In this document: one piece after another, positions 3,113 to 60,353 of the stretch
How the letters are laid out: every line of letters begins with the position of its first letter
Position numbering within the stretch: position 1 is the stretch's first letter
The notes under the pieces: generated by a model
Told to the model about the DNA's origin: nothing
Databases searched by the model: none
Seen by the model: only the letters and a program-made list of their open reading frames with translations
Program-made: the position numbers and the translations under genes
Virus record (IMG/VR): IMGVR_UViG_3300021962_000028
Span: 32,001-96,000 of that record
From: a virus
DNA length: 64,000 bases
Strand: one strand, 5' to 3'

Positions 3113-4327
3113 ATGACAAAAATTAATGTATTAGTACTACCATCAGATAAAACAGGTGTAGGTAAGTTCAGGTCTGTCGACCCACACATCTTTTTACAAA
3201 AATTATATCCCGAAGATTTTCACGTAGATATTGACTATCAACCTAAAGTTGATGATTTGAATTATTGGAAAAAATATCAAATAGTTCACATCCATAGAAC
3301 CATAGCTCAAAACTATGATAATACCCCTACGATACTTAAAACGTTAAACGATTTAGGAATTGTAACTATTATTGACATTGACGACTATTGGATGCCAGGT
3401 CCTGAACACCCAATCTACGATTTAATTAAAAATCATAAAATTCACGAAAAAATTGTTGCCAACCTAAAAGCTGCAAGATACGTTACAACAACAACAACTT
3501 TATTTGCTAATGAGATTAGAAAAATAAATAAGAATGTTATTGTATTACCAAACGCAATAGACCCGAAAGAACCTCAATTTAATGAACCAACTTTAGAGTC
3601 AGACAAATTAAGATTTGGATGGTTAGGTGGTTCTTCTCACCTACACGATTTAAAATTAATCGAAGGGTCTCTATCCAAATTTAATTCTGAAGACCGAAAA
3701 GATTTACAAATTTATTTATGTGGTTTTGATACTAGAGGTACTATTACTGAAATTAATAGAGATACAGGTGAACAAAAACAAAGACCTATCAAACCTGAGG
3801 AAACTGTTTGGAATAAATATGAACAAATTATGACTTCAAACCGTACAGGTTTAAGTGAAGACTACATTAACTACCTTTTAAGATTTAAAGAAGATGTTTA
3901 TCCTAATGAACTTGAACAACCTTATGTTAGAGTTTGGACAAGACCTGTACAATCTTATGCTAAGAATTATTCAAAATTTGATGTATCTTTGGCACCTATT
4001 AAAAATACAATGTTTAATAGAATGAAATCTCAACTAAAGGTTATTGAAGCGGGATTTTATAAGAAAGCATTAATTGCGTCTGAAATAGGTCCTTATACCT
4101 TAGATTTGAAACACGCGTTAAAAAATGGTGAGTTCTCAGATGGTAATGCTTTGTTAGTTAATGAAAATAGAAACCATAGTGATTGGTATAAGTTCATTAA
4201 AAAACTTAAACAAAATAGAAATTTAGTTACAGACTTAGGAGAAAGATTATATGAGACTGTTAAAGACACTTATGATTTAAATAACGTAACTAAAACAAGA
4301 GCTGAATTTTATAAAAGTATAGTATAA
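3113..4327 (+). CDS. GT-B (GT4-like) glycosyltransferase
   Basis: IDIDDYW, VLPNAID, FGWLGGSSH, DVSLAP...FNRMKSQLKVIEAG motifs. Confidence 0.8.
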   Translation: MTKINVLVLPSDKTGVGKFRSVDPHIFLQKLYPEDFHVDIDYQPKVDDLNYWKKYQIVHIHRTIAQNYDNTPTILKTLNDLGIVTIIDIDDYWMPGPEHPIYDLIKNHKIHEKIVANLKAARYVTTTTTLFANEIRKINKNVIVLPNAIDPKEPQFNEPTLESDKLRFGWLGGSSHLHDLKLIEGSLSKFNSEDRKDLQIYLCGFDTRGTITEINRDTGEQKQRPIKPEETVWNKYEQIMTSNRTGLSEDYINYLLRFKEDVYPNELEQPYVRVWTRPVQSYAKNYSKFDVSLAPIKNTMFNRMKSQLKVIEAGFYKKALIASEIGPYTLDLKHALKNGEFSDGNALLVNENRNHSDWYKFIKKLKQNRNLVTDLGERLYETVKDTYDLNNVTKTRAEFYKSIV

Positions 4328-31028: not shown

Positions 31029-32882
31029 TTATAAATATCTCTTATTTAAGAGTTTGTCTAATTCTTCAGAAATATCTCCTAAAGAATCTTGTCCTTTAGA
31101 TAAATCAATATAACTATCTTCAGTTAACATATCCTGAGATTCTAATAAAATATTAAGATTTTCTCTTTTAACTGATTCAGGAGTTATCTCAGATTCCCCT
31201 CCTGCTGGTGGGGCTTCTCCTCCTGTATCACCGCCAATTGGAGACTCTCCTCCACCTCCTAAACCTGCTGGTGGGGTAAATCCACTTTCTTCACCACCCG
31301 CAGTTTCACCTCCCGCACTTGCGGTGGTACCTGATGGACTTCCATATAATTTATCTATATTGTCGAAAATACCTGTTTTAGTTATAACTGTAGGAGTATT
31401 TTCAAGTTCTTTAGCAACCGCCTTTTCAAGTCTTTGTTGTTGTAAATCTAATCTAATATCTTCATCTGAAAAACCTAATACGTGTTTCTTAGCCCAAGAT
31501 ACTGACACAGGGGCGATACCTTCAATAGCAGTAACCGCATCTTTGTAAAGTAATATTTTTTCTTTCCACACGTCAATTTTTAACAAATCAGCTTGTGTCG
31601 ATGGATTTGATAATGTTAGAGTAAAGTTAGATAACTCGTCCTCAAATCCCAATAAGAATAAATGTATAATAGCAACTTTATTAAGTTCCGCTAACATACT
31701 TTTTTGTATTCTATTAATAGTTCGTGCAAAACGGATATCTTGTAATGATAAGTTTTTACCATCACCAACAACTTCCTCAAAACCTAAAAATGCTTTAGGT
31801 ACACGAAGTGCCGTTAATAATTTCTTTTGGATATATTCGATATCTGCAATCTCAGAAAGGTTTTGCGCTCCTGGTAATGTATCAATAGGGTTTGGTGCCG
31901 CAGGGTCACGAACAGGTACGAAGTAATCTTGGTCTACCGCCATTTGATTAAACCTCATATCAACATTACCCGTTTTATGGTCAACAACTTGGTCTCTTTT
32001 AAATTTATTTGCAACACGTTGTACATAAGCTTCAACATCCTTATCGTCCATATTACCAACAAATACCTTAAAGATTCTTCTTTCAGGTGCTCTTGATGTA
32101 CGATAGATTAACATTGCGTCTTCCGATAATAATAACTGTTTCCAAATACGTCTTGCTTTTTCTAACATAGAAGTACCATAAGGAAGTTTTCTATCATCAC
32201 CCAATAATCTAAAGTGGGCAATTTCCCAAGTATTGAATGACATATCTTTATTCTTCCAATTGAATGCAAGTGCTTTTTGCTCACCTTCGCCACTGTCTAA
32301 ATTAGATTTACCTTTCATACCTCTTTCAACCCTTTCAATCTCAATGTTAGGTAATTGCATACATCCAACAATTCCTTTCTCAGGGTCTAATTTAAGATAA
32401 ACAAAATTATCACCGTACTTACAAGTGTTTCTAGTCCACATTGCAAGGTTAGTGTTAATATCTAACACATTGTTAAATAAATCAGCCAATACTGATTTAA
32501 TACGTTTTGATTCTGAGTATATTTGTAGGATGTAACCGTTTTGGTCGGCAGTTGTAGATTCTTCGGCATAAATGTCTAACGCTGCGGAAATCTCAGGAGT
32601 ATACTCCATAGATTCGTAGTCGTAATACGACGCCAATCTTGTTGGTTCAAAATAAACTCCTTGACTGTAGAGGTTATTTTCTATTTTAGTCCACTGATTT
32701 GCAAGATAGAATGTTTGTTGGGCTTGTAATTTAGCCTTCTCATATTCTTGTGCATTTGTTGTTTTTAATAACTCTTTCTTATCGTATTTAAAAACGGGGT
32801 AATCCTGATTCATTAAAGAATTAGGACCAAAGGTCTGTGATAACCTTTGCCAAACCGTTAAATCTCTATTTTCATTACTCAT
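31029..32882 (-). CDS. Portal protein (T4 gp20-like)
   Basis: EDAMLIYRTSRAPERRIF, DTLPGAQNL, DIEY...ALRVP, DIRFARTINRIQ. Confidence 0.95.
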   Translation of the reverse strand: MSNENRDLTVWQRLSQTFGPNSLMNQDYPVFKYDKKELLKTTNAQEYEKAKLQAQQTFYLANQWTKIENNLYSQGVYFEPTRLASYYDYESMEYTPEISAALDIYAEESTTADQNGYILQIYSESKRIKSVLADLFNNVLDINTNLAMWTRNTCKYGDNFVYLKLDPEKGIVGCMQLPNIEIERVERGMKGKSNLDSGEGEQKALAFNWKNKDMSFNTWEIAHFRLLGDDRKLPYGTSMLEKARRIWKQLLLSEDAMLIYRTSRAPERRIFKVFVGNMDDKDVEAYVQRVANKFKRDQVVDHKTGNVDMRFNQMAVDQDYFVPVRDPAAPNPIDTLPGAQNLSEIADIEYIQKKLLTALRVPKAFLGFEEVVGDGKNLSLQDIRFARTINRIQKSMLAELNKVAIIHLFLLGFEDELSNFTLTLSNPSTQADLLKIDVWKEKILLYKDAVTAIEGIAPVSVSWAKKHVLGFSDEDIRLDLQQQRLEKAVAKELENTPTVITKTGIFDNIDKLYGSPSGTTASAGGETAGGEESGFTPPAGLGGGGESPIGGDTGGEAPPAGGESEITPESVKRENLNILLESQDMLTEDSYIDLSKGQDSLGDISEELDKLLNKRYL

Positions 32883-45198: not shown

Positions 45199-45244
45199 TT
45201 TGGATATTTAAAAAACAAATTGTATCTTTGTAATGTTCTTTGAA
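45199..45244 (+). promoter_or_regulatory. Bacteroidota promoter plus boxA-like motif for tmRNA
   Basis: TTTG-N20-TATCTTTG followed by GTTCTTTGAA (45235-45244). Confidence 0.7.
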
Positions 45245-45249
45245 AATAT

Positions 45250-45635
45250 GGGGATGAATGGAATCGATTGGCATTGTTGCGTATCGGTGGCACGTCGGAA
45301 CTGAATTAATTCCGTAAAAACTGATTCAAAACTGTAAACGGCAACGTTTTAGACAAAATGGCTCTATTAGGTCTTGTTAAACAAGATGAGCTTGTTTCTG
45401 TAGCGTAAGCACAAAAACATTCGGGTCGGCGGACTTATAACCTAGGAACAGAAGTCTTTATAGGTGTGGTTTCTATCTTAAAAGGAACAAGTGGAGGATT
45501 AGTTCTCAGTAAACCGAACCACTATAAAATAAGGGAATTGTGAATTTCGGAACATTAGAAAATGTTGACCTAAACGTGTAGTCACTTATATGTGAAGTGA
45601 ACAAGACGAGAGTTCGAATCTCTCCATCTCCACCA
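45250..45635 (+). ncRNA. ssrA: tmRNA; tag frame 45340-45408 (A)GNVLDKMALLGLVKQDELVSVA*
   Basis: 5' GGGGATG pairs with 3' CATCTCC-ACCA including G3:U70; T-arm GAGAG-TTCGAAT-CTCTC; resume context TAAAC-GGC. Confidence 0.93.
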
Positions 45636-45756: not shown

Positions 45757-45921
45757 ATGAAAAAAGTATTTTTTGCAATCGGGGTAGTGGCTTTTTTATC
45801 ATCTTGTGGTGGTAATGCGTCTAAAACAGAAGGAACAAACGTTGATTCAACTACAGTTTCAACTGACACTACTAAAATGGTTGTAGATTCAACAAAAGTT
45901 GACACTACGTCAGTAAAATAA
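45757..45921 (+). CDS. Small lipoprotein (54 aa, not in ORF track) MKKVFFAIGVVAFLSS-CGGNASKTEGTNVDSTTVSTDTTKMVVDSTKVDTTSVK
   Basis: Signal peptide with LSSC lipobox; A-rich leader; TATTTATA at 45704; terminator at 45942-45968. Confidence 0.85.
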   Translation: MKKVFFAIGVVAFLSSCGGNASKTEGTNVDSTTVSTDTTKMVVDSTKVDTTSVK

Positions 45922-53060: not shown

Positions 53061-53105
53061 AAGACAAAGATATGAAGAATATTTTAATTGGCAAAGAAAA
53101 ATATG

Positions 53106-53191
53106 CGGAAGATGAGGGGCTCGAACCCTCGCGACTTTAACATCCTACCTGTTTAGCAAACAGGCCCCTTCACCAACTTGGGTAATCTTCC
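53106..53191 (-). tRNA. tRNA-Ser(GCT)
   Basis: Cloverleaf; CCTGT-TTGCTAA-ACAGG; long variable arm. Confidence 0.92.
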
Positions 53192-53196
53192 AATAG

Positions 53197-53268
53197 TAGT
53201 CCCTGAGGGATTCGAACCCCCACTAAAACATCCGTAGTGTTTCGTGCTCTCCGTTACACCAAGAGACT
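53197..53268 (-). tRNA. tRNA-Arg(ACG)
   Basis: AAACA-CTACGGA-TGTTT; GGTTCGAATCC. Confidence 0.9.
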
Positions 53269-53274
53269 GTACAT

Positions 53275-53478
53275 CTAATTAAAGGTATATTTCATATCTT
53301 CATTAAAGATAAAAACATTACCTTCTTGAGTTATACCTAACTTACTCAAAACAATATTAAATTCTTCTTGAGTGAAAAATTTAGATTGTACCAACCTGTA
53401 ATACGAGTTTAATAAATCAACTATCTCAGGTTCTGAAATTTGATGGGTGTTTAATAATTCATTTAATTTGTCTGTCAT
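53275..53478 (-). CDS. Hypothetical protein (67 aa, MTDKLNELL...)
   Basis: AT-rich 3' part of ORF 53275..53628; start reassigned to 53478. Confidence 0.6.
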   Translation of the reverse strand: MTDKLNELLNTHQISEPEIVDLLNSYYRLVQSKFFTQEEFNIVLSKLGITQEGNVFIFNEDMKYTFN

Positions 53479-53504
53479 ATATTTTAGGATTTTAAGTGTC
53501 AGAA

Positions 53505-53913
53505 TAAAAAGGTCCTGAATCATCCCTCCGCCTTCTGAGGAGAACCTTTTAGTTTTTAGTATAGTTTGGCGTTCATAGTATCCCACACCGATATGACTAA
53601 GATTCGTTAGCCCATAGTAACCATCCACGGTGGGTCTGTACTCTCACCCATATTTCAGGGTTACCCTCAGAACATCTTCACCCTACCCCCAAAGTTACGT
53701 GGCGAGTCTCACTCGGAAGACAGAGTGTGTATTGTAAGATTGTTCAGTGTTCTTACAACTTGTGGATTGTATTACGACTAATTAAAGCCCCTCACCCCCT
53801 TAATCCATAATGGGGAATCCTTGTTTGTTTGTGTAGCCTCCCCCATAGCCTTGAAGCCTTCAAGTCAGGTTCACACTCCATAACGGTAGGATATTTCCGT
53901 TAATCGTGGGGTC
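53505..53913 (-). ncRNA. Unidentified structured RNA(s), ~410 nt
   Basis: GC-enriched non-coding region with many hand-identified helices between tRNA-Ser and the next ORF. Confidence 0.55.
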
Positions 53914-53918
53914 TTTTG

Positions 53919-54003
53919 CGGAGGAAGTAGGATTCGAACCTACGGTACCTTGCGGTACGCTAGTTTTCAAGACTAGTGCAATCGACCACTCTGCCATTCC
54001 TCC
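53919..54003 (-). tRNA. tRNA-Ser(TGA)
   Basis: CTAGT-CTTGAAA-ACTAG; long variable arm. Confidence 0.93.
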
Positions 54004-54005
54004 AA

Positions 54006-54099
54006 TTTAGGTCGTCACGAACCCATCTGTGACTTATTACTAGATACTTGTAGTTTACTTACTATAGTTTAATCCGTTACTACAAGGGAACCCAACCTA
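54006..54099 (-). ncRNA. Unidentified ~93-nt structured RNA
   Basis: Closing stem TAGGTTG/CGACCTA; internal stems CTTGTAGT/ACTACAAG and GTCAC/GTGAC. Confidence 0.55.
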
Positions 54100-54102
54100 T
54101 CG

Positions 54103-54176
54103 GGTGACTAACGGGAATCGAACCCGTGACAACTTGAACCACAATCAAGTGCTCTGCCTACTGAGCTATAGCCACC
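54103..54176 (-). tRNA. tRNA-His(GTG) with G-1
   Basis: CTTGA-TTGTGGT-TCAAG. Confidence 0.93.
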
Positions 54177-54182
54177 ATATTA

Positions 54183-54388
54183 ATCGTTCAATCATTTTTG
54201 ACTGTCCCCAATACCGAATTTCAGCGGCAACTCACTTTTGTGAGGGGTTAGAACTTGTGTGTTAACTTACTCCTGTTACTGGTACACTAACCAACCGACT
54301 TAGACTCAAGTAATCGGCTCAGGTCCCTATGGTTGTAACACCACTTCTCATCATTCGGGAGCAAACTAGTCGTGTACTACTCGACTCG
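54183..54388 (-). ncRNA. Unidentified ~200-nt structured RNA
   Basis: Non-coding and GC-enriched; helices AGTCG/CGACT, TTGCTCC/GGAGTAA, GCCGATT/AGTCGGT, CTCAC/GTGAG. Confidence 0.5.
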
Positions 54389-54390
54389 TG

Positions 54391-54492
54391 TAGTCAGGAC
54401 AGGATTCGAACCTATTCCGTCTTTGCCATAAAGAGTCATCCGTACTGTTACTCAACCTTGGGGAGGTGACACCAACCAATGGTCTCCTGACT
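54391..54492 (-). ncRNA. tRNA-like RNA A (canonical acceptor and T arm, expanded non-canonical anticodon/variable region)
   Basis: AGTCAGG/CCTGACT-A acceptor; ATAGG-TTCGAAT-CCTGT; ~102 nt. Confidence 0.7.
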
Positions 54493-54497
54493 ATTTG

Positions 54498-54631
54498 TAA
54501 TCAAGGTCGGACTCGAACCGAATACCGTTCAAGACGGATTAGACAACCTTACGACTCCATAGACCCCACAAGTGTCTGGGACTATTGGTCTTGGGGACTC
54601 GGGCACCGTCCCTCATTACGCCCACTTGATT
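54498..54631 (-). ncRNA. tRNA-like RNA B (~134 nt with large insertion)
   Basis: AATCAAG/CTTGATT-A acceptor; TCGG-TTCGAGT-CCGA T arm; ~80-nt structured middle. Confidence 0.7.
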
Positions 54632-54706
54632 ATTTACCCCACTTCACCAGGTTAACGGACTGGCTGCCATATGGGAGTGGGGGTTTCCCGTTAATTCGGG
54701 ACTCCG

Positions 54707-54779
54707 TGGAACGGGGCGGAATCGAACCGCCGACACCTTGCTCTTCAGGCAAGTGCTCTACCAACTGAGCTACCGTTCC
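54707..54779 (-). tRNA. tRNA-Phe(GAA)
   Basis: CTTGC-CTGAAGA-GCAAG. Confidence 0.93.
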
Positions 54780-54784
54780 AAGTA

Positions 54785-54921
54785 TGATAATGATGGAGTA
54801 CCCGTCTCGCTCCAATCTTAACTGCTTTCCTGAGTTTTAGGAGGCCTCGGCAGAAAGGGTGATGAACTATTTTTCCATTCGGAATTGTCGACATTCCATT
54901 GAATGGTAAGAACCATTATCA
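54785..54921 (-). ncRNA. Unidentified ~137-nt structured RNA
   Basis: Closing stem TGATAATG/CATTATCA enclosing three hairpins. Confidence 0.55.
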
Positions 54922-54933
54922 ATATTTTAAAAA

Positions 54934-55159
54934 TTGGTGAGACCTTAAGATTTACTCATTCGTGGGTCACCCCATCCGTTCTACCTAGACCTCGCCTTTA
55001 ACATCCGTTCTACCCAAACCATCGTTTTTACCTGTTAACCTTTCGGAAAACTTTGAGTACCTCCTCAATGAGTTAATCTGATAGGGGCTCCATCTTGCTC
55101 GTCATTTCTGACTCCCTATGGGGTTCTGCTGATATAGGTCTATCTGCTATCTTACCAAT
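54934..55159 (-). ncRNA. Unidentified ~226-nt structured RNA
   Basis: Closing stem ATTGGTAAGA/TCTCACCAAT; long helix AGATTAACTCATT/AATGAGTAAATCT; repeated GGTAGAACGGATG. Confidence 0.6.
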
Positions 55160-55166
55160 CTAATTA

Positions 55167-55269
55167 TTCAAAGAACTCTTTTGACAGGGGAGTAGGTCAC
55201 CAACTTACCAACTACCTACCCCCCTTCAACCACATTACAAATGTACGGCAAATTATTTAATTCTCCAAA
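55167..55269 (-). promoter_or_regulatory. Internal promoter, leader hairpin and boxA-like motif
   Basis: TTTG-N20-TACATTTG (55269-55238), GGGGGGTAGGT/ACCTACTCCCC hairpin, GTTCTTTGAA (55176-55167). Confidence 0.6.
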
Positions 55270-55278
55270 CATTTTTTG

Positions 55279-55350
55279 TAGTTCCTGTAGGATTCGAACC
55301 TACGACAACTTGTATGTAAAACAAGGGCTCTTCCACTGAGCTAAGGAACT
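55279..55350 (-). tRNA. tRNA-Val(TAC)
   Basis: CTTGT-TTTACAT-ACAAG. Confidence 0.92.
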
Positions 55351-55356
55351 GTTAAG

Positions 55357-55428
55357 TACCGATGGGAAGAATTGAACTTCCGACACCTTCCGTATGAAAG
55401 AAGTGCTCTACCACTGAGCTACATCGGT
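55357..55428 (-). tRNA. tRNA-Met(CAT), probably elongator
   Basis: CTTCT-TTCATAC-GGAAG; paired 1:72. Confidence 0.85.
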
Positions 55429-55482
55429 ATTTTGGTGGACGTAGACTCATCACCTACTCTTGGGTTTCCACCGAACCCCTTG

Positions 55483-55553
55483 TTGTCCCTGAAGGATTCG
55501 AACCTCCACCGCGTGGACCAAAACCACGTGTCCTGCCATTAGACCAAAGGACA
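55483..55553 (-). tRNA. tRNA-Gln(TTG)
   Basis: CGTGG-TTTTGGT-CCACG. Confidence 0.93.
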
Positions 55554-55609
55554 GTTTGACTGTTTTTCCGATATTTATAGACTGGCATAAACCTTTAATC
55601 AAATTTATA

Positions 55610-55774
55610 ATGACTAAAGAACAAATCCAAGGTATCGTTAGACACGCACTTACTTTTGTGGGTGGTATCCTGATTATGAAAGGTCTTGCAACTGATTCAA
55701 CAGTTCAAGAACTTATCGGAGCTGCAGTTACATTAGTTGGTGGTGTATGGTCAATTATTGCTAAACAGAAATAA
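55610..55774 (+). CDS. Small two-TM holin-like protein
   Basis: MTKEQIQGIVRHALTFVGG...GGVWSIIAK; TATTTATA at 55572; terminator downstream. Confidence 0.7.
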   Translation: MTKEQIQGIVRHALTFVGGILIMKGLATDSTVQELIGAAVTLVGGVWSIIAKQK

Positions 55775-55793
55775 TTGATAACGACCTAATCGA

Positions 55794-55821
55794 AAAAGAG
55801 GGGATTTATATCCCCTTTTTT
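55794..55821 (+). terminator. Intrinsic terminator (possibly bidirectional)
   Basis: AGGGGAT-TTAT-ATCCCCTTTTTT. Confidence 0.8.
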
Positions 55822-55827
55822 ATTTTG

Positions 55828-55908
55828 TGGGAGTGGAGGGATTCGAACCCCCAATGTCGTAAGACCACTGATTTACAGTCAGCTAAGCAACCGTTGCTCA
55901 ACACTCCC
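55828..55908 (-). tRNA. tRNA-Tyr(GTA)
   Basis: GCTGA-CTGTAAA-TCAGT; variable arm. Confidence 0.92.
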
Positions 55909-55911
55909 AAT

Positions 55912-56040
55912 TTAGGAAAACAGAAGATGGTTCAGTGGACATCTGTTTTTACGATTAGCGTTACTCGGGTGAATACCTGCAAACTCCGATTATATTAGTC
56001 AGTATTCACTCTCGAACTATCAATACAATCATTCCCTAAT
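55912..56040 (-). ncRNA. Unidentified ~128-nt structured RNA
   Basis: TTAGGGAA/TTTCCTAA closing stem; GTGAATAC/GTATTCAC; AAACAG/CTGTTT. Confidence 0.5.
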
Positions 56041-56056
56041 CAACCTAATTTTTTTG

Positions 56057-56128
56057 CGGCCAGGGAGAATTACGATATCTCGACCTATCGCTTAACAGGC
56101 GATTGCTCTTCCTCTGAGCTACCTGGCC
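56057..56128 (-). tRNA. tRNA-Asn(GTT), atypical T loop
   Basis: ATCGC-CTGTTAA-GCGAT; T loop ATCGTAA. Confidence 0.85.
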
Positions 56129-56133
56129 ATTTG

Positions 56134-56206
56134 CACGCCTACCAAGATTCGAACTTGGAACAACAGTTTTGGAGACTGTGATGATAAACCGTTTCACCAT
56201 AGACGT
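56134..56206 (-). tRNA. tRNA-Trp(CCA)
   Basis: ACAGT-CTCCAAA-ACTGT. Confidence 0.9.
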
Positions 56207-56211
56207 ATTTG

Positions 56212-56283
56212 AGGTCGGTACAGGAATCGAACCTGTGTAGATAGTTTTGCAGACTATCGCCTAAACCACTCGGCCAACCGACC
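56212..56283 (-). tRNA. tRNA-Cys(GCA)
   Basis: ATAGT-CTGCAAA-ACTAT; U73. Confidence 0.92.
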
Positions 56284-56289
56284 CTATTG

Positions 56290-56364
56290 TGTCCCCGACA
56301 GGACTCGAACCTGTGACTCCCTCATTAAAAGTGAGGTGCTCTAAACCAACTGAGCTACGAAGAC
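56290..56364 (-). tRNA. tRNA-Lys(TTT)
   Basis: CCTCA-CTTTTAA-TGAGG. Confidence 0.93.
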
Positions 56365-56370
56365 ATTAAG

Positions 56371-56444
56371 TTGTCACAGATGGGCTCGAACCATCGACCT
56401 TTCGCGTATCAGGCGAACGCTCTAACCAACTGAGCTATGTGACA
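56371..56444 (-). tRNA. tRNA-Ile(GAT)
   Basis: TTCGC-CTGATAC-GCGAA. Confidence 0.92.
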
Positions 56445-56450
56445 ATGTTG

Positions 56451-56522
56451 TCGGGGTGGCGGGAGTCGAACCCGCCGCCTCGTGTTCCCAAAACACGCGT
56501 CTCTCCTCGAGACTACACCCCG
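56451..56522 (-). tRNA. tRNA-Pro(TGG)
   Basis: CGTGT-TTTGGGA-ACACG; C1:G72, A73. Confidence 0.92.
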
Positions 56523-56562
56523 TTTACTTTTCTTACCAATATGTCAAAGAACACTTTATTAC

Positions 56563-56595
56563 AAAAAAAAATCCTGAACTTTTTGAGTTCAGGAC
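56563..56595 (-). terminator. Attenuator terminator 2
   Basis: TCCTGAACT-CAAAA-AGTTCAGGA-T9 between leader 2 and tRNA-Pro. Confidence 0.9.
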
Positions 56596-56631
56596 TTTGA
56601 TATATTTGTTGTATGTTTTTCTAAAATTACA

Positions 56632-56742
56632 TTACACTAAATCATCATTAACTGAACTTGTATGCGAAATACGCGGATACGAACAATTACTAAATTGTTG
56701 TTTCCAAATCACGACGTTCATATGTTTATTAGTGTTTTTCAT
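56632..56742 (-). CDS. Leader peptide 2, MKNTNKHMNVVIWKQQFSNCSYPRISHTSSVNDDLV (not in ORF track)
   Basis: Manual translation; lies between a consensus promoter and the terminator; codons match the downstream tRNA set. Confidence 0.8.
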   Translation of the reverse strand: MKNTNKHMNVVIWKQQFSNCSYPRISHTSSVNDDLV

Positions 56743-56787
56743 TTTTTCTATTTGTTGTGGTATCTCTACCTGTTTCTATAATTACTA

Positions 56788-56818
56788 CAAAGTTACGAAA
56801 AATTACGTAATTGTCAAA
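56788..56818 (-). promoter_or_regulatory. Bacteroidota promoter for leader 2/tRNA block 2
   Basis: TTTG-N19-TAACTTTG. Confidence 0.8.
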
Positions 56819-56829
56819 TATTTTTTATT

Positions 56830-57414
56830 TTATTTTAAAAAAGATAATACTTTTTCTTTAATACCAGATTGTTTTAACCCTTCATTACCTCTTGGAGTCA
56901 ATACAAAATTTTCTAAACCCCAATCGTGAACCCATTTAATCGAATACGACATCCCTTCTTTACCCATATCAAGGTCGTCGATAGCTACCCACTCAGTAAC
57001 CTCAGGATGATTCTTTAAGTATTGGTTGATTTCCAATGTACGAGTCTGTTCTAAATCCCAATCTCTATTCCAAGGGAACGAACCATCGTAGTTATTACAT
57101 TCACTTAAGTTAGGTGTAAAGGCGATTGGTTTTTTATTAATTCCTTGGGACTCGTAATACTCTCCCATTTCCTCAACGGTACACCATCTTTTCCAATCTG
57201 ATGATACCACAATTTCCGCACCAGTTTTTTCCAAGATTTCGTTAAGAACTTTAATAGCTTTCTTATTGAAATTATCAAAACGGTATTCTAATGGCATTTC
57301 CTTTGGGGTCATTGATAACTTTTGACCGTCCCATTTATTTCGTTTCTTATAACGACCACCCCACTCTGTGGATAAACAGATTACTCCGTCGTGGTCTAAA
57401 AATATAACTTTCAT
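56830..57414 (-). CDS. HAD phosphatase of the Swiss-Army-Knife RNA-repair type
   Basis: MKVIFLDHDGV, IVVSSDWK, RTLEI, WVAIDDLD. Confidence 0.8.
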   Translation of the reverse strand: MKVIFLDHDGVICLSTEWGGRYKKRNKWDGQKLSMTPKEMPLEYRFDNFNKKAIKVLNEILEKTGAEIVVSSDWKRWCTVEEMGEYYESQGINKKPIAFTPNLSECNNYDGSFPWNRDWDLEQTRTLEINQYLKNHPEVTEWVAIDDLDMGKEGMSYSIKWVHDWGLENFVLTPRGNEGLKQSGIKEKVLSFLK

Positions 57415-57686
57415 TTTTTTTCTATTTTTTTTAAAACCATAGACGACCATTTTTGTCTTGGCCCGTTTTTCATTAACACCTCGTTGATAAAAGTCTCAGC
57501 ATCAGGAAGATTGTTGAATTTTAGAACGGTGTTGTAAGACCCACTCTCATAACATTCTTTATACTTTACGTACGACCACCATTTAAACCATAAAAATTTT
57601 TTAGATTCTTTTATACAGAAATGAACTTGGTTACTAATACCATTCTCATTAAAATAATCTTCTCTAATAATCAGGTAACTTTTCAT
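57411..57686 (-). CDS. Hypothetical protein
   Basis: 91-aa ORF; -7 box 4 nt before the ATG. Confidence 0.65.
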   Translation of the reverse strand: MKSYLIIREDYFNENGISNQVHFCIKESKKFLWFKWWSYVKYKECYESGSYNTVLKFNNLPDAETFINEVLMKNGPRQKWSSMVLKKIEKK

Positions 57687-57701
57687 AGTACAAATATACG
57701 A

Positions 57702-57869
57702 CTATTTTTTAATAATATAACCATATTGGTTTAAAATTAGAATAATCCCTAAAATGGATAAACCAAGACAAATTATTTTAACAATAACGTCAATGAATGT
57801 TTTCTTACTCCATATAACCCCAAAGATTAGGAATATAATTGTCGCAATAATATTGAATATAAGTTGCAT
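57702..57869 (-). CDS. Small membrane protein
   Basis: MQLIFNII...; two TM helices; start reassigned so it does not overlap the tRNA. Confidence 0.6.
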   Translation of the reverse strand: MQLIFNIIATIIFLIFGVIWSKKTFIDVIVKIICLGLSILGIILILNQYGYIIKK

Positions 57870-57890
57870 ATTTGTTTTTTTAGATATTTG

Positions 57891-57964
57891 TGGTCCATAC
57901 AGGACTTGAACCTGTGACCTTCTCATTATGAGTGAGCTGCTCTAACCAACTGAGCTAAAGGACC
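57891..57964 (-). tRNA. tRNA-Ile2(CAT, lysidine-type, reads ATA)
   Basis: CTCATAA loop; GGTCCTTTAGCTCAGTTGGTTAGAGCAG body and TTCAAGT T loop resemble ileX-type tRNAs. Confidence 0.75.
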
Positions 57965-57970
57965 TATTTG

Positions 57971-58043
57971 AGCCTCCTGTAGGATTCGAACCTACGACCC
58001 CTTCATTACAAGTGAAGTGCTCTACCAGCTGAGCTAAGGAGGC
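57971..58043 (-). tRNA. tRNA-Thr(TGT)
   Basis: CTTCA-CTTGTAA-TGAAG. Confidence 0.93.
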
Positions 58044-58328
58044 CTATTTAATTTTCTTATATACGTAAGTTATTGTGTCCCCTATTTTGTAGATATCGTC
58101 CCTATCTGTTGAGAATGCTTGTCCGCACTCTGTTTTGTAGTAATATTTTGGAGTTAATTCATTAATTGCCACAGGTTGTTTAACCCAAGAACTATCTATA
58201 ACGCATTTAACAACTTTGTCCCCTGGTTCAATTTTATTTCTATTTTCACACCCTGTTAATACAAAGGCAATAATACCAATTAATAAAAACCAAATAATGG
58301 CAAATACGTACGGTGCGAACTTTTTCAT
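58044..58328 (-). CDS. Putative lipoprotein
   Basis: Hydrophobic signal with LTGC lipobox; VIDSS motif. Confidence 0.7.
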   Translation of the reverse strand: MKKFAPYVFAIIWFLLIGIIAFVLTGCENRNKIEPGDKVVKCVIDSSWVKQPVAINELTPKYYYKTECGQAFSTDRDDIYKIGDTITYVYKKIK

Positions 58329-58347
58329 ATATTATTTTTTTTGTAAT

Positions 58348-58602
58348 TTAAACAACCAAATACTTTATAGAATTTTTTTTAATCCATTCTGAATCATATT
58401 TAAACTCCTTCCAATTGTCGAAGTCCTTAAGTTCTTCTAATACCTCATTAGGTACTAATGTAAACCCTTCAGGTGCAATACCATCAAATTTATGATATGC
58501 AGAATGTTCTATTTTTTCTTTCATCATTTGACAGAATAACTCACTTTTGATAAACTCATTATGTTCTTCTTCAAATACAATATCTTGATTAATATCAACC
58601 AT
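58348..58602 (-). CDS. Hypothetical protein
   Basis: 84-aa ORF. Confidence 0.65.
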   Translation of the reverse strand: MVDINQDIVFEEEHNEFIKSELFCQMMKEKIEHSAYHKFDGIAPEGFTLVPNEVLEELKDFDNWKEFKYDSEWIKKNSIKYLVV

Positions 58603-58617
58603 AATTTCTTAATTTAG

Positions 58618-58689
58618 TAGCCCCACCAAGAATCGAACTTGGAACTAATCTTTAGAAGAGATTCGTTATATCCATTTAACTATGGAGCC
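58618..58689 (-). tRNA. tRNA-Arg(TCT)
   Basis: AATCT-CTTCTAA-AGATT. Confidence 0.92.
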
Positions 58690-58694
58690 ATTTG

Positions 58695-58871
58695 TTAGAC
58701 TTTTTTAACTAAGTAAACGTGACCTGAGTCTGAGTTTTTAGAAAAAATATCTCTCATTTTAATTGCTTCTTCCTCGGTTTCAAATTCCCATATTTCAGAG
58801 TGACCATCTAATATGATAACAGGAACTTTAACTCCGTTAAGACTTTCCATTAATTTTACAATTACCCACAT
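58695..58871 (-). CDS. Small hypothetical protein (58 aa, MWVIVKLMESL...)
   Basis: Manual translation; TAAATTTG -7 box upstream. Confidence 0.6.
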   Translation of the reverse strand: MWVIVKLMESLNGVKVPVIILDGHSEIWEFETEEEAIKMRDIFSKNSDSGHVYLVKKV

Positions 58872-58914
58872 AATATTTTATTTACACTACAAATTTAGTA
58901 AAAATTATCCGAAT

Positions 58915-59076
58915 TTACAAATTAAAACAACTTTTAAGTGAAAATAATATAAAAAAAATTATTACTAACAGAATTGAGTAACCGAAAACTTTATTATTTC
59001 TTTCAACCTTTTCTTTTGAACGACCTTGCCATTCATCAGAATCCCATACTTCAGAATCCCATTCTTCATTTTCCAT
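58915..59076 (-). CDS. Small membrane protein (53 aa, MENEEWDSEVWDSDEWQGR...)
   Basis: Manual translation; C-terminal TM helix. Confidence 0.55.
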   Translation of the reverse strand: MENEEWDSEVWDSDEWQGRSKEKVERNNKVFGYSILLVIIFFILFSLKSCFNL

Positions 59077-59106
59077 ACTTAATAAGTATTACTAAATTTA
59101 TTTGTG

Positions 59107-59178
59107 CGGTCTATGAGGGAATCGAACCCTCCTCACTACCGTGACAGGGTAGCATCCTAGCCGATGAACGAATAGACC
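59107..59178 (-). tRNA. tRNA-Asp(GTC)
   Basis: CTACC-CTGTCAC-GGTAG. Confidence 0.92.
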
Positions 59179-59186
59179 AATTTTTG

Positions 59187-59259
59187 CGGTCCCGACGGGA
59201 TTCGAACCCGTACCTCGCACCGTGACAGGGTGGAATTGTAACCATTCAACCACGGGACC
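59187..59259 (-). tRNA. tRNA-Asp(GTC), second divergent copy
   Basis: CCACC-CTGTCAC-GGTGC. Confidence 0.9.
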
Positions 59260-59265
59260 TTTTTG

Positions 59266-59338
59266 AGCGGAAGACGGGACTCGAACCCGCAACCCCCGAC
59301 TTGGAAGGACGGTGCTCTACCAATTGAGCTACTTCCGC
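59266..59338 (-). tRNA. tRNA-Gly(TCC)
   Basis: CCGTC-CTTCCAA-GTCGG; U73. Confidence 0.93.
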
Positions 59339-59418
59339 ATTTTTGGGTAGAATCAGACGCGTTCTGTCTACCGAGACCTCGTCGTTAACTTTCGTCAGAG
59401 CGGACCGAGACACTTTTG

Positions 59419-59492
59419 TTGCGGGTGAGGGACTCGAACCCCCGTCTTTGGCTTATGAGACCAAGCTGGAACCACCTCCAGTCTAACCCACG
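59419..59492 (-). tRNA. tRNA-Met(CAT), initiator-like (C1:A72)
   Basis: TTGGT-CTCATAA-GCCAA; C1xA72 mismatch. Confidence 0.8.
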
Positions 59493-59503
59493 ATATATTA
59501 TTT

Positions 59504-59593
59504 GTTATCACTTCAGCCACATCGTGAAAGCCGCCCCTCACGCGTTGTTTAAAGGAATCCGATTGCGGCCTCATCCTACTGAGTTATGATAAC
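59504..59593 (-). ncRNA. Unidentified ~90-nt structured RNA
   Basis: GTTATCA/TGATAAC closing stem with two internal hairpins. Confidence 0.55.
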
Positions 59594-59597
59594 TTTG

Positions 59598-59669
59598 TTG
59601 CGGGAGGAGGATTCGAACCTCCGACCTCAAGGTTATGAGCCTTGCGAGCTACCACTGCTCTATCCCGCG
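59598..59669 (-). tRNA. tRNA-fMet(CAT)
   Basis: CGCGGGA...; C1xA72; CAAGG-CTCATAA-CCTTG. Confidence 0.9.
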
Positions 59670-59675
59670 ATGTTG

Positions 59676-59749
59676 TGGAGATGGTGAGAATCGAACTCAC
59701 CCCAGATTGATTGCAAATCATTCTCGTCGGCCTTGAGACATACACCCCC
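59676..59749 (-). tRNA. tRNA-Ala(TGC), atypical D arm
   Basis: G3:U70 acceptor GGGGGTG/CATCTCC-A; loop TTTGCAA. Confidence 0.8.
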
Positions 59750-59756
59750 ATTTTTA

Positions 59757-60020
59757 TTATGAATACTTTTTAGCGATATTCATAATAGTATCTTCATCTT
59801 CTTTACTCATTCTATGATAAGAATTTGCTAAAACATCACAATAATCCCTATGAGTTTCCTCAATTAGTGTATATTGATTTGGTTTACCAGGACCCTTACT
59901 ATTTTTAGTTAAGTGACCTCTTTCGATTAATTCATCAATTAATTCATTAATTTCACTTTTAGAGCATTCATCAATAAATTCATAAACCTCTAAATCAATG
60001 TAAGTGCTAAATTCAGGCAT
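59757..60020 (-). CDS. Hypothetical protein
   Basis: 87-aa ORF. Confidence 0.65.
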   Translation of the reverse strand: MPEFSTYIDLEVYEFIDECSKSEINELIDELIERGHLTKNSKGPGKPNQYTLIEETHRDYCDVLANSYHRMSKEDEDTIMNIAKKYS

Positions 60021-60040
60021 AATAGTTATTTTTAAGTTTG

Positions 60041-60112
60041 TAGTCCCTACGGGAATCGAACCCGTCTTTTATCCGTGAAAGGGATATGTCCTAACCGATA
60101 GACGAAGGGACC
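60041..60112 (-). tRNA. tRNA-Glu(TTC)
   Basis: TATCC-CTTTCAC-GGATA. Confidence 0.93.
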
Positions 60113-60170
60113 ATTTTTAAATCTTTTACAAAGATACAACCAATATTTCAAAGAACAAAATTTTACAAAT

Positions 60171-60200
60171 AAAAAAACCCATCTCTTTTGGAGATGGGTT
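60171..60200 (-). terminator. Attenuator terminator 1
   Basis: AACCCATCTC-CAAAA-GAGATGGG-T7. Confidence 0.9.
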
Positions 60201-60224
60201 CAGTGAATTCATAGTATAGGAATA

Positions 60225-60299
60225 TCACACCATCTCCATTGGAGTAGTCGCTTCAGTTCTATCTGTCCCGCCTATTAGTATGATATGTATTGTTTTCAT
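60225..60299 (-). CDS. Leader peptide 1, MKTIHIILIGGTDRTEATTPMEMV (not in ORF track)
   Basis: Manual translation; 3' end complementary to the terminator 5' arm; codons match the downstream tRNA set. Confidence 0.8.
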   Translation of the reverse strand: MKTIHIILIGGTDRTEATTPMEMV

Positions 60300-60322
60300 T
60301 TGCAGTTTTACTTGTTTTTTAT

Positions 60323-60353
60323 TAAATATACGTATGTAACGTAAAAAGTCAAA
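60323..60353 (-). promoter_or_regulatory. Promoter for leader 1/tRNA block 1
   Basis: TTTG-N19-TATATTTA (one mismatch to TAnnTTTG). Confidence 0.6.

Follow-up and report, generated by a model that had tools for sequence, protein, structure and literature searches.

Leader open reading frames with codons matching the downstream tRNA genes form putative transcription attenuators in a phage genome

In a 64,000-nucleotide stretch of viral DNA (hereafter the window; positions 32,001 to 96,000 of IMG/VR record IMGVR_UViG_3300021962_000028), two blocks of phage tRNA genes are each preceded by a short leader open reading frame (ORF) and an intrinsic terminator, and the codons of each leader match the tRNAs of the block behind it. 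Taken together, sequence comparison and folding models make it very probable that these units are codon-matched attenuators of their tRNA blocks. The source record is a virus genome of 158,622 bases (32.5% G+C) whose capsid, portal, terminase and prohead protease genes are T4-like, and the nearest cultured-phage capsids, those of Flavobacterium Immutovirus and Microcystis phage Mel-JY01, are 42% identical. The host would be a member of the Bacteroidota, because the genome carries TTTG-(19-20)-TAnnTTTG promoters (consensus TTTG-19-TAnnTTTG; PMC7366714) and A-rich start contexts without Shine-Dalgarno sequences (PMC6847099).

Two leaders and the tRNA blocks behind them

Using ARAGORN, we confirmed the 25 minus-strand tRNA genes, their order and their division into two blocks as given in the initial annotation, and both leaders, both CAAAA-loop terminators and both GTTCTTTGA boxes lie where it had placed them. 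On the minus strand, unit 1 begins with a promoter-like element (TTGAC ... TATATTTAA; 60322..60352), which is followed by leader ORF 1 (24 codons, of which codons 3-17 are the predicted sensing window for block 1; 60225..60299), intrinsic terminator 1 with its CAAAA loop and U tract (60170..60201), a boxA-like element (60139..60156, the box starting at 60156) and tRNA block 1 (57890..60112), in which Glu, Ala, two initiator-like Met, Gly-TCC, two Asp, Arg-TCT, Thr and an Ile2-like CAT tRNA are arranged with small ORFs between them. Unit 2, on the same strand, consists of a Bacteroidota-type promoter motif (56788..56818), leader ORF 2 (36 codons; 56632..56742), terminator 2, again with a CAAAA loop and U tract (56563..56598), a second boxA-like element (56535..56552, the box starting at 56552) and block 2 (53105..56522), with the order Pro, Ile-GAT, Lys, Cys, Trp, Asn, Tyr, Gln, Met, Val, Phe, His, Ser-TGA, Arg-ACG, Ser-GCT. 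The predicted sensing window of leader 2, codons 2-25, holds all 14 non-Met classes of its block. The terminator calls themselves span 60201-60175 and 56598-56568. The parts of the claimed series of promoter, ORF and terminator at the head of each block are present; the blocks themselves are not clean single transcription units, as they contain internal promoters and an antisense gene. Of the two initiator-like Met tRNAs (59418-59492 and 59597-59669, minus strand), the one at 59418 is atypical and has a low Rfam score (38 bits).

Codons were assigned to decoding classes (Arg AGR/CGN, Ser AGY/TCN, Leu TTR/CTN, Ile ATA/ATY and Gly GGR/GGY, with Met excluded), and chance was estimated from segments of equal length taken from the coding sequence of the phage itself. 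In leader 1, 7/7 classes of block 1 are represented and 14/21 codons are in-block (joint P=3.5e-5). For leader 2 the figures are 14/14 classes of block 2 and 29/34 codons in-block, which was reached in 0/400,000 cases by chance; the swap table between the two leaders gave 14:5 vs 4:29 (p=1.2e-5). A codon check bore out the statements that leader 1 lacks W, C, Y, F, Q, N and S and leader 2 lacks G, E and A, that Arg-AGA and three Ile-ATA codons occur only in leader 1, and that Arg-CGT, Ile-ATT and the Ser codons AGT and TCN occur only in leader 2. The broader proposal that the leader codons inventory the block tRNAs stood in so far as all classes are covered, beyond chance; the inventory is not exclusive, since a few codons have their tRNA elsewhere or have none (K, H, Ile-ATC, Leu-CTA, Gly-GGC, P and V in leader 1; T, D and L in leader 2). 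Most of the non-matching codons sit at the leader start or in the tail that doubles as antiterminator, and host trp leaders also carry K, N, T and I codons at their start. Read from the start codon, leader 1 completes its set of classes with Ala at codon 17, and leader 2 does so with Arg-CGT at codon 24.

Codon and tRNA content in related loci and cultured phages

We collected 441 loci through the boxA motif, a terminator-plus-boxA pattern and a neighbouring protein, none of which selects for leader codons. An ATG ORF of 15-60 codons ending 18-45 nt upstream was present at 217/253 terminators that lie at most 200 nt before a tRNA, compared with 6/40 other terminators of this genome, and these 217 ORFs yielded 148 distinct leaders, with one representative per cluster used in cluster tests. 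At 40-50% clustering, 93% of the block tRNA classes have a codon in their own leader vs 70-72% after permutation (maxima in 5,000 permutations, 79% at 50% clustering and 83% at 40%), and in the loci with two units the own leader-block pairing beat the swapped one in 22/22. When non-overlapping pairs of homologous leaders with differing blocks were compared, the codon followed the tRNA 16:2 at an identity of at least 45% and 33:2 at an identity of at least 35%, many other differences being ties that stem partly from missed block ends. For example, one position in the leader 2 family is Pro where the block contains tRNA-Pro and Glu where tRNA-Glu has replaced it, with the exception of one locus (L151) that has both tRNAs and only the Glu codon. 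The match also extends to isoacceptors (51:18 vs 6:49 for 70% clusters, 24:8 vs 6:34 for 50% clusters); in blocks with one isoacceptor, the sensing-window codons were split 6:0 and 0:7 for Arg, 12:0 and 0:15 for Leu and 10:7 and 4:22 for Ile, and the match for Ser and Gly was not significant taken alone. Co-variation of leader codons with tRNA content, the check set beforehand, was therefore found in permutations, swaps, homologous pairs and isoacceptors alike.

The pattern of substitutions in the aligned sequences indicates that the leaders are under coding selection. Among single-base codon changes 81/159 are synonymous vs 24% expected, and changes are in excess at the third position (134 vs 72 and 76). 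As for the start context, A is found at -3 in 72% and at -12 in 74% of the family, a context type described before (PMC6847099), and leader 1 of the window has C at -3. Gaps in the sensing window are not multiples of three in 8/12 cases, and the net frame is kept in 6/8 homologous pairs.

Units of the same kind are present in two cultured phages. Cellulophaga phage phi17:2_18 (KT962247.1) has three, and in the first all eleven codons from 4 to 14 are read by the seven tRNAs of its block, with the boundary at codon 14; unit 2 requires an assumed GTG start, and unit 3 folds less cleanly. In that genome the leader of tRNA block 2 is probably the gene Phi17218_077 (L482:5283-5402), whose annotation is a 39-aa hypothetical protein. 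Two units are present in Tenacibaculum phage Gundel_1 (NC_062747.1); at the head of its array, a tRNA-Tyr-like and a tRNA-Trp gene are unannotated (L474:3093-3240, 3414-3487), and a tRNA listed as undetermined resembles Cys. In Gundel_1 as in phi17:2, about 4 nt separate the -7 promoter motif from the leader start, so these leaders may be read from leaderless mRNAs. The examined tRNA regions of Vibrio KIT04, Bacillus Bc431v3 (about 300 nt upstream only), Gordonia Phendrix, Caulobacter J4 and Salmonella SP-058 contained no unit, and neither did the examined stretches of Flavobacterium immuto, Bacteroides DAC22 and crAss cr116_1. A scan of 185,579 prokaryotic genomes for the terminator tail plus boxA gave 22 matches, none of them before a leader-tRNA unit, a search for one exact pattern that leaves absence from host chromosomes unproven.

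The phage itself carries a third leader-antiterminator-terminator unit on the plus strand, just past the end of the window (G000:C1:96305-97423, equivalent to window positions 64305-65423). Its leader (96305-96409) is followed by an HNH-like gene, tRNA-Leu(TAA), tRNA-Leu(TAG) and a ClpP-like gene. This leader, whose peptide is the same in a related locus (L112), covers both Leu classes and switches in the folding model described below.

A predicted ribosome-dependent switch and its possible trigger

The initial annotation had read the two units as multi-input attenuators and named no antiterminator; we found one in each unit, and the geometry fits a switch set by ribosome position, in support of that reading. 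Toward its 3' end each leader carries a stretch complementary to the 5' arm of its terminator: GGAGAUGG (leader codons 21-23; 60230..60237, minus strand) pairs with CCAUCUCC of terminator 1, and AGUUCAG (leader codons 29-31; 56652..56658, minus strand) pairs with CUGAACU of terminator 2. Each unit thereby combines the core parts of an attenuator, namely an ORF, a terminator, a predicted maskable antiterminator and block-related control codons upstream of that antiterminator.

Folding was carried out on the transcript before the terminator 3' arm is made, with a ribosome assumed to cover 10 nt past the A-site codon. The terminator 5' arm was predicted to be captured (P 0.75-0.88) with the ribosome anywhere up to and including codon 17 of leader 1 (0.74 at codon 18) or codon 25 of leader 2, and to be largely free two codons past the boundary in both. 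The predicted boundary codons, 17 and 25, compare with last needed codons of 17 and 24. Across the family, capture was predicted in 140/148 leaders at an early stall vs 3/148 with the ribosome at the stop codon, and codon-shuffled leaders reached a mean of 0.47 vs 0.85 for real leaders; in a further test, arm swaps also predicted mutual exclusion of antiterminator and terminator. Block-matching codons make up 79-81% of those in the sensing window and 39-45% of those in the tail. In the leader 1 family, the antiterminator and the terminator arm change together, with 93.7% of cells pairing and 8 cells changed on both sides, which no shuffle reached, relatedness being expected to inflate such counts.

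We propose that each unit would be a ribosome-controlled transcription attenuator giving negative feedback on the phage tRNA supply. A host ribosome would translate the leader behind RNA polymerase, and with fast decoding it would leave the sensing window and cover the antiterminator strand, so that the terminator forms and transcription ends before the tRNAs. If the ribosome were delayed in the sensing window, which holds mostly one codon per block tRNA, or if there were no ribosome, the antiterminator would capture the terminator 5' arm first; the polymerase would then read into the block, probably aided by boxA/Nus antitermination, and the tRNAs for the slow codons would be supplied. Attenuation probably contributes a share that depends on demand, in addition to what the internal promoters transcribe. 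Functional loss of a tRNA is the likelier signal, because the match is to isoacceptors and because an extra tRNA cannot cure amino-acid starvation. We tentatively suggest, as a possibility that falls somewhat short of even odds, that the units survey the host tRNA pool at isoacceptor resolution, such that loss of any one listed tRNA, for instance to a host anticodon nuclease, would cause a single-codon stall and induce the block with its replacement as a counter-defence.

Several observations weigh against the attenuator reading. At equilibrium, the full transcript always folds into the terminator (P at least 0.99 in both window leaders), whose stability exceeds that of the antiterminator in 114/146 units; the switch must therefore be kinetic and co-transcriptional. 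The predicted boundary codons depend on the 10-nt footprint assumed beyond the A-site codon. For about 8% of block classes the leader offers no codon, and since most of the others have few (one for 354/642 block classes and two for 139, with tandem runs of control codons absent), a long stall would be needed. The third leader has only 3 Leu codons in a sensing window of about 19. Finally, a TAnnTTTG motif lies 3' of the terminator in 45/148 units, including unit 1 of the window, and from their sequence the internal promoters, one of them right after terminator 1, can bypass the attenuators.

The units might instead gauge general translation or ribosome coupling, so that any slowdown or loss of the trailing ribosome would switch the tRNAs on and single missing tRNAs would matter little. 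Folding with the ribosome left out still gave the antiterminator in both window leaders and in 121/148 units, and a protective 1:2 hairpin is usually lacking; the default would therefore be ON, and general loss of translation would also induce the blocks. The prevalence of single codons and the coverage of nearly all amino acids by some leaders fit a general gauge as well. However, such a gauge would have no need for codons that follow the gain, loss and relocation of tRNAs between blocks, nor for the exceptionless isoacceptor match of Arg and Leu, and we regard it as unlikely.

Full Bacteroidota promoter motifs on the minus strand lie directly 3' of terminator 1 (60129..60159, starting at 60159), upstream of Arg-TCT, Thr and Ile2 in block 1 (58890..58921, starting at 58921), and in block 2 at 55269-55238, where the motif and a third boxA-like element at 55176 (together 55168..55269) precede Phe, His, Ser, Arg and Ser; the 8 kb hold 7 such motifs, compared with 0.09 in crude shuffles. 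Block 2 is further interrupted between tRNA-Tyr and tRNA-Gln by a small antisense gene (55570..55821, plus strand) with its own promoter-like motif and a two-way terminator, which may cut read-through within the block; the gene is absent from two relatives (L114, L115). Given the internal promoters and the inserted antisense gene, the blocks are not gated by the leaders alone. These features would also agree with attenuators that are real and yet minor or partly vestigial here, with the tRNAs made mainly from internal host-type promoters and the leaders trimming read-through from upstream, as would the GGC codon that leader 1 retains though the Gly-GCC tRNA of close relatives is missing here, and the weak match of the third leader. 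Such a minor role is quite improbable in our view: in many units the first tRNA follows the terminator by 13-50 nt and the gap holds no promoter motif, the leader's motif is the only one that serves the first seven tRNAs of block 2, leader 1 differs very little between relatives, and the family is under coding selection. That the ORFs are small proteins, small RNAs or chance frames before ordinary terminators, with a codon match by coincidence or shared ancestry, is very improbable even though AT-rich DNA is rich in short ORFs and both leaders and tRNA order are shared between related phages, because the match survives 40% identity clustering, within-locus swaps and non-overlapping homologous pairs, is confined to the leader part upstream of the antiterminator and recurs in cultured phages of other genera; the chance, permutation, swap, window-versus-tail and homologous-pair tests led us to reject it. 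A function of the leader peptides was likewise rejected, since their composition follows the tRNA block.

Returning to the attenuator reading, the promoter-like element of leader 1 is of a class that precedes 32/147 long ORFs, including the portal gene, vs a 1.8% background, and also other genes of the head cluster; it is therefore probably a late phage promoter. Since leader 1 stands behind this differing, late-type motif, it may govern a late supplement of tRNAs that have an early supply as well.

A boxA-like element is present in 120/148 units, a frequency that is not evidence because most loci were found by that motif. A position in the 16S-23S spacer before the 23S gene is the expected site of boxA in rRNA operons. 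The GTTCTTTGACAT core of the phage box occurs in this spacer, 61-72 nt before 23S, in a Chitinophagaceae and a Bacteroidales genome (L420, L440), the two Bacteroidota genomes on which the comparison is based. In rRNA operons boxA functions in Nus antitermination (PMC10931766); the phage box shares the core and differs in following an attenuator and preceding phage tRNAs, and its binding of Nus factors is putative. Elsewhere in this genome the box also precedes the transfer-messenger RNA (tmRNA) gene and a tRNA-Leu gene without an adjacent terminator, so it would mark stable-RNA transcripts and not the attenuator as such. The tmRNA gene itself (45235-45635, plus strand; Rfam 101.8 bits), which ARAGORN missed, is preceded by a Bacteroidota -7 promoter motif and a boxA-like element. 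In related loci (L014, L073, L123), a segment of boxA plus TAnnTTTG comparable to 60129-60159 seems to move with tRNA-Glu between blocks.

Relation to known attenuators, and neighbouring features

The trpL, hisL and leuL leaders and the multivalent thrL and ilvGMEDA leaders are leader-peptide transcription attenuators. The phage units resemble these E. coli leaders and pheL, whose mechanism has been described (PMC3082878), in having a short leader ORF with control codons and an antiterminator that competes with an intrinsic terminator, where the position of the ribosome would decide. They differ in that their output is tRNA genes and not biosynthetic enzymes, in having up to 14-20 inputs with mostly one codon each where the amino-acid attenuators have runs for one to three amino acids, in matching isoacceptors, in usually lacking a 1:2 protector hairpin and in being phage-encoded. 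The Bacteroid-trp leader (RF01692) belongs to the same host lineage and has a similar geometry, with an A-rich start, a stop codon 32-49 nt before the terminator and, in most examples, a stall-dependent alternative helix, and it served as a partial positive control for the folding test. In contrast to the phage leaders, it has a run of Trp codons and serves host trp genes, while leader 2 has one Trp codon and leader 1 none, and its covariance model in Rfam did not match the phage leaders. Rfam holds no curated family for them, and a Phe-leader match at 45906 was discarded, as it was below threshold and at an unrelated terminator.

The E. coli pheM attenuator of pheST provides feedback on the decoding machinery, in that case an aminoacyl-tRNA synthetase operon. 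The phage units are similar in that attenuation would feed back on a component of this machinery; pheM/pheST, unlike them, involves a single amino acid, has a protein as its product and belongs to the host. T-box riboswitches also sense tRNA status and control termination, and they do so by binding uncharged tRNA directly, with no need of an ORF. The phage units would share the sensing of tRNA status and the control of termination and differ in using an ORF; no Rfam T-box match was found at E<=0.5 between 44000 and 64000 of the window, and a T-box mechanism was rejected since the motifs are lacking.

A literature search, with most subscription journals outside its reach, returned no description of leader-peptide attenuation controlling tRNA genes, in agreement with the earlier statement that no attenuators on phage tRNA arrays were known. 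Two papers (PMC11464382, PMC11555353), going by their titles, reportedly deal with phage tRNAs against host anticodon nucleases. A further paper presents phage tRNAs as a counter-defence against such nucleases (PMC10264068); the available part of this source concerns the tRNAs themselves and not a sensor controlling their transcription, and states that the reason for phage tRNA carriage has been open for more than 50 years. Nuclease counter-defence gives a plausible reason for a phage to replace lost tRNAs. If slow decoding of its own codons switches each block on, the blocks would constitute a demand-driven repair kit instead of a fixed codon supplement. Attenuation would then reach beyond enzymes to tRNA genes, and a sensor of up to about 20 inputs would join the known cases of one to three amino acids. 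If, moreover, the units survey the tRNA pool, they would be an inducible counter-defence made only of RNA and a mini-gene, and the leaders would list the tRNAs that become limiting during infection. The cultured carriers, Cellulophaga phage phi17:2 and Tenacibaculum phage Gundel_1, make the competing ideas practically testable.

Six non-tRNA segments of the array (59495-59595, 59340-59417, 55910-56055, 54780-55230, 54180-54700 and 53520-53915, minus strand) are conserved in 14-79 related loci, with top matches of 85-100% identity. They gave no Rfam match above threshold and are candidate structured RNAs without a known family. The gene between the two blocks (56830-57450, minus strand) probably encodes a HAD_SAK_2 (RNA-repair-associated) protein, a family assigned to the window as a whole. 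RNA ligases are also encoded in the window and, together with the HAD_SAK_2 protein, would fit a tRNA-repair theme.

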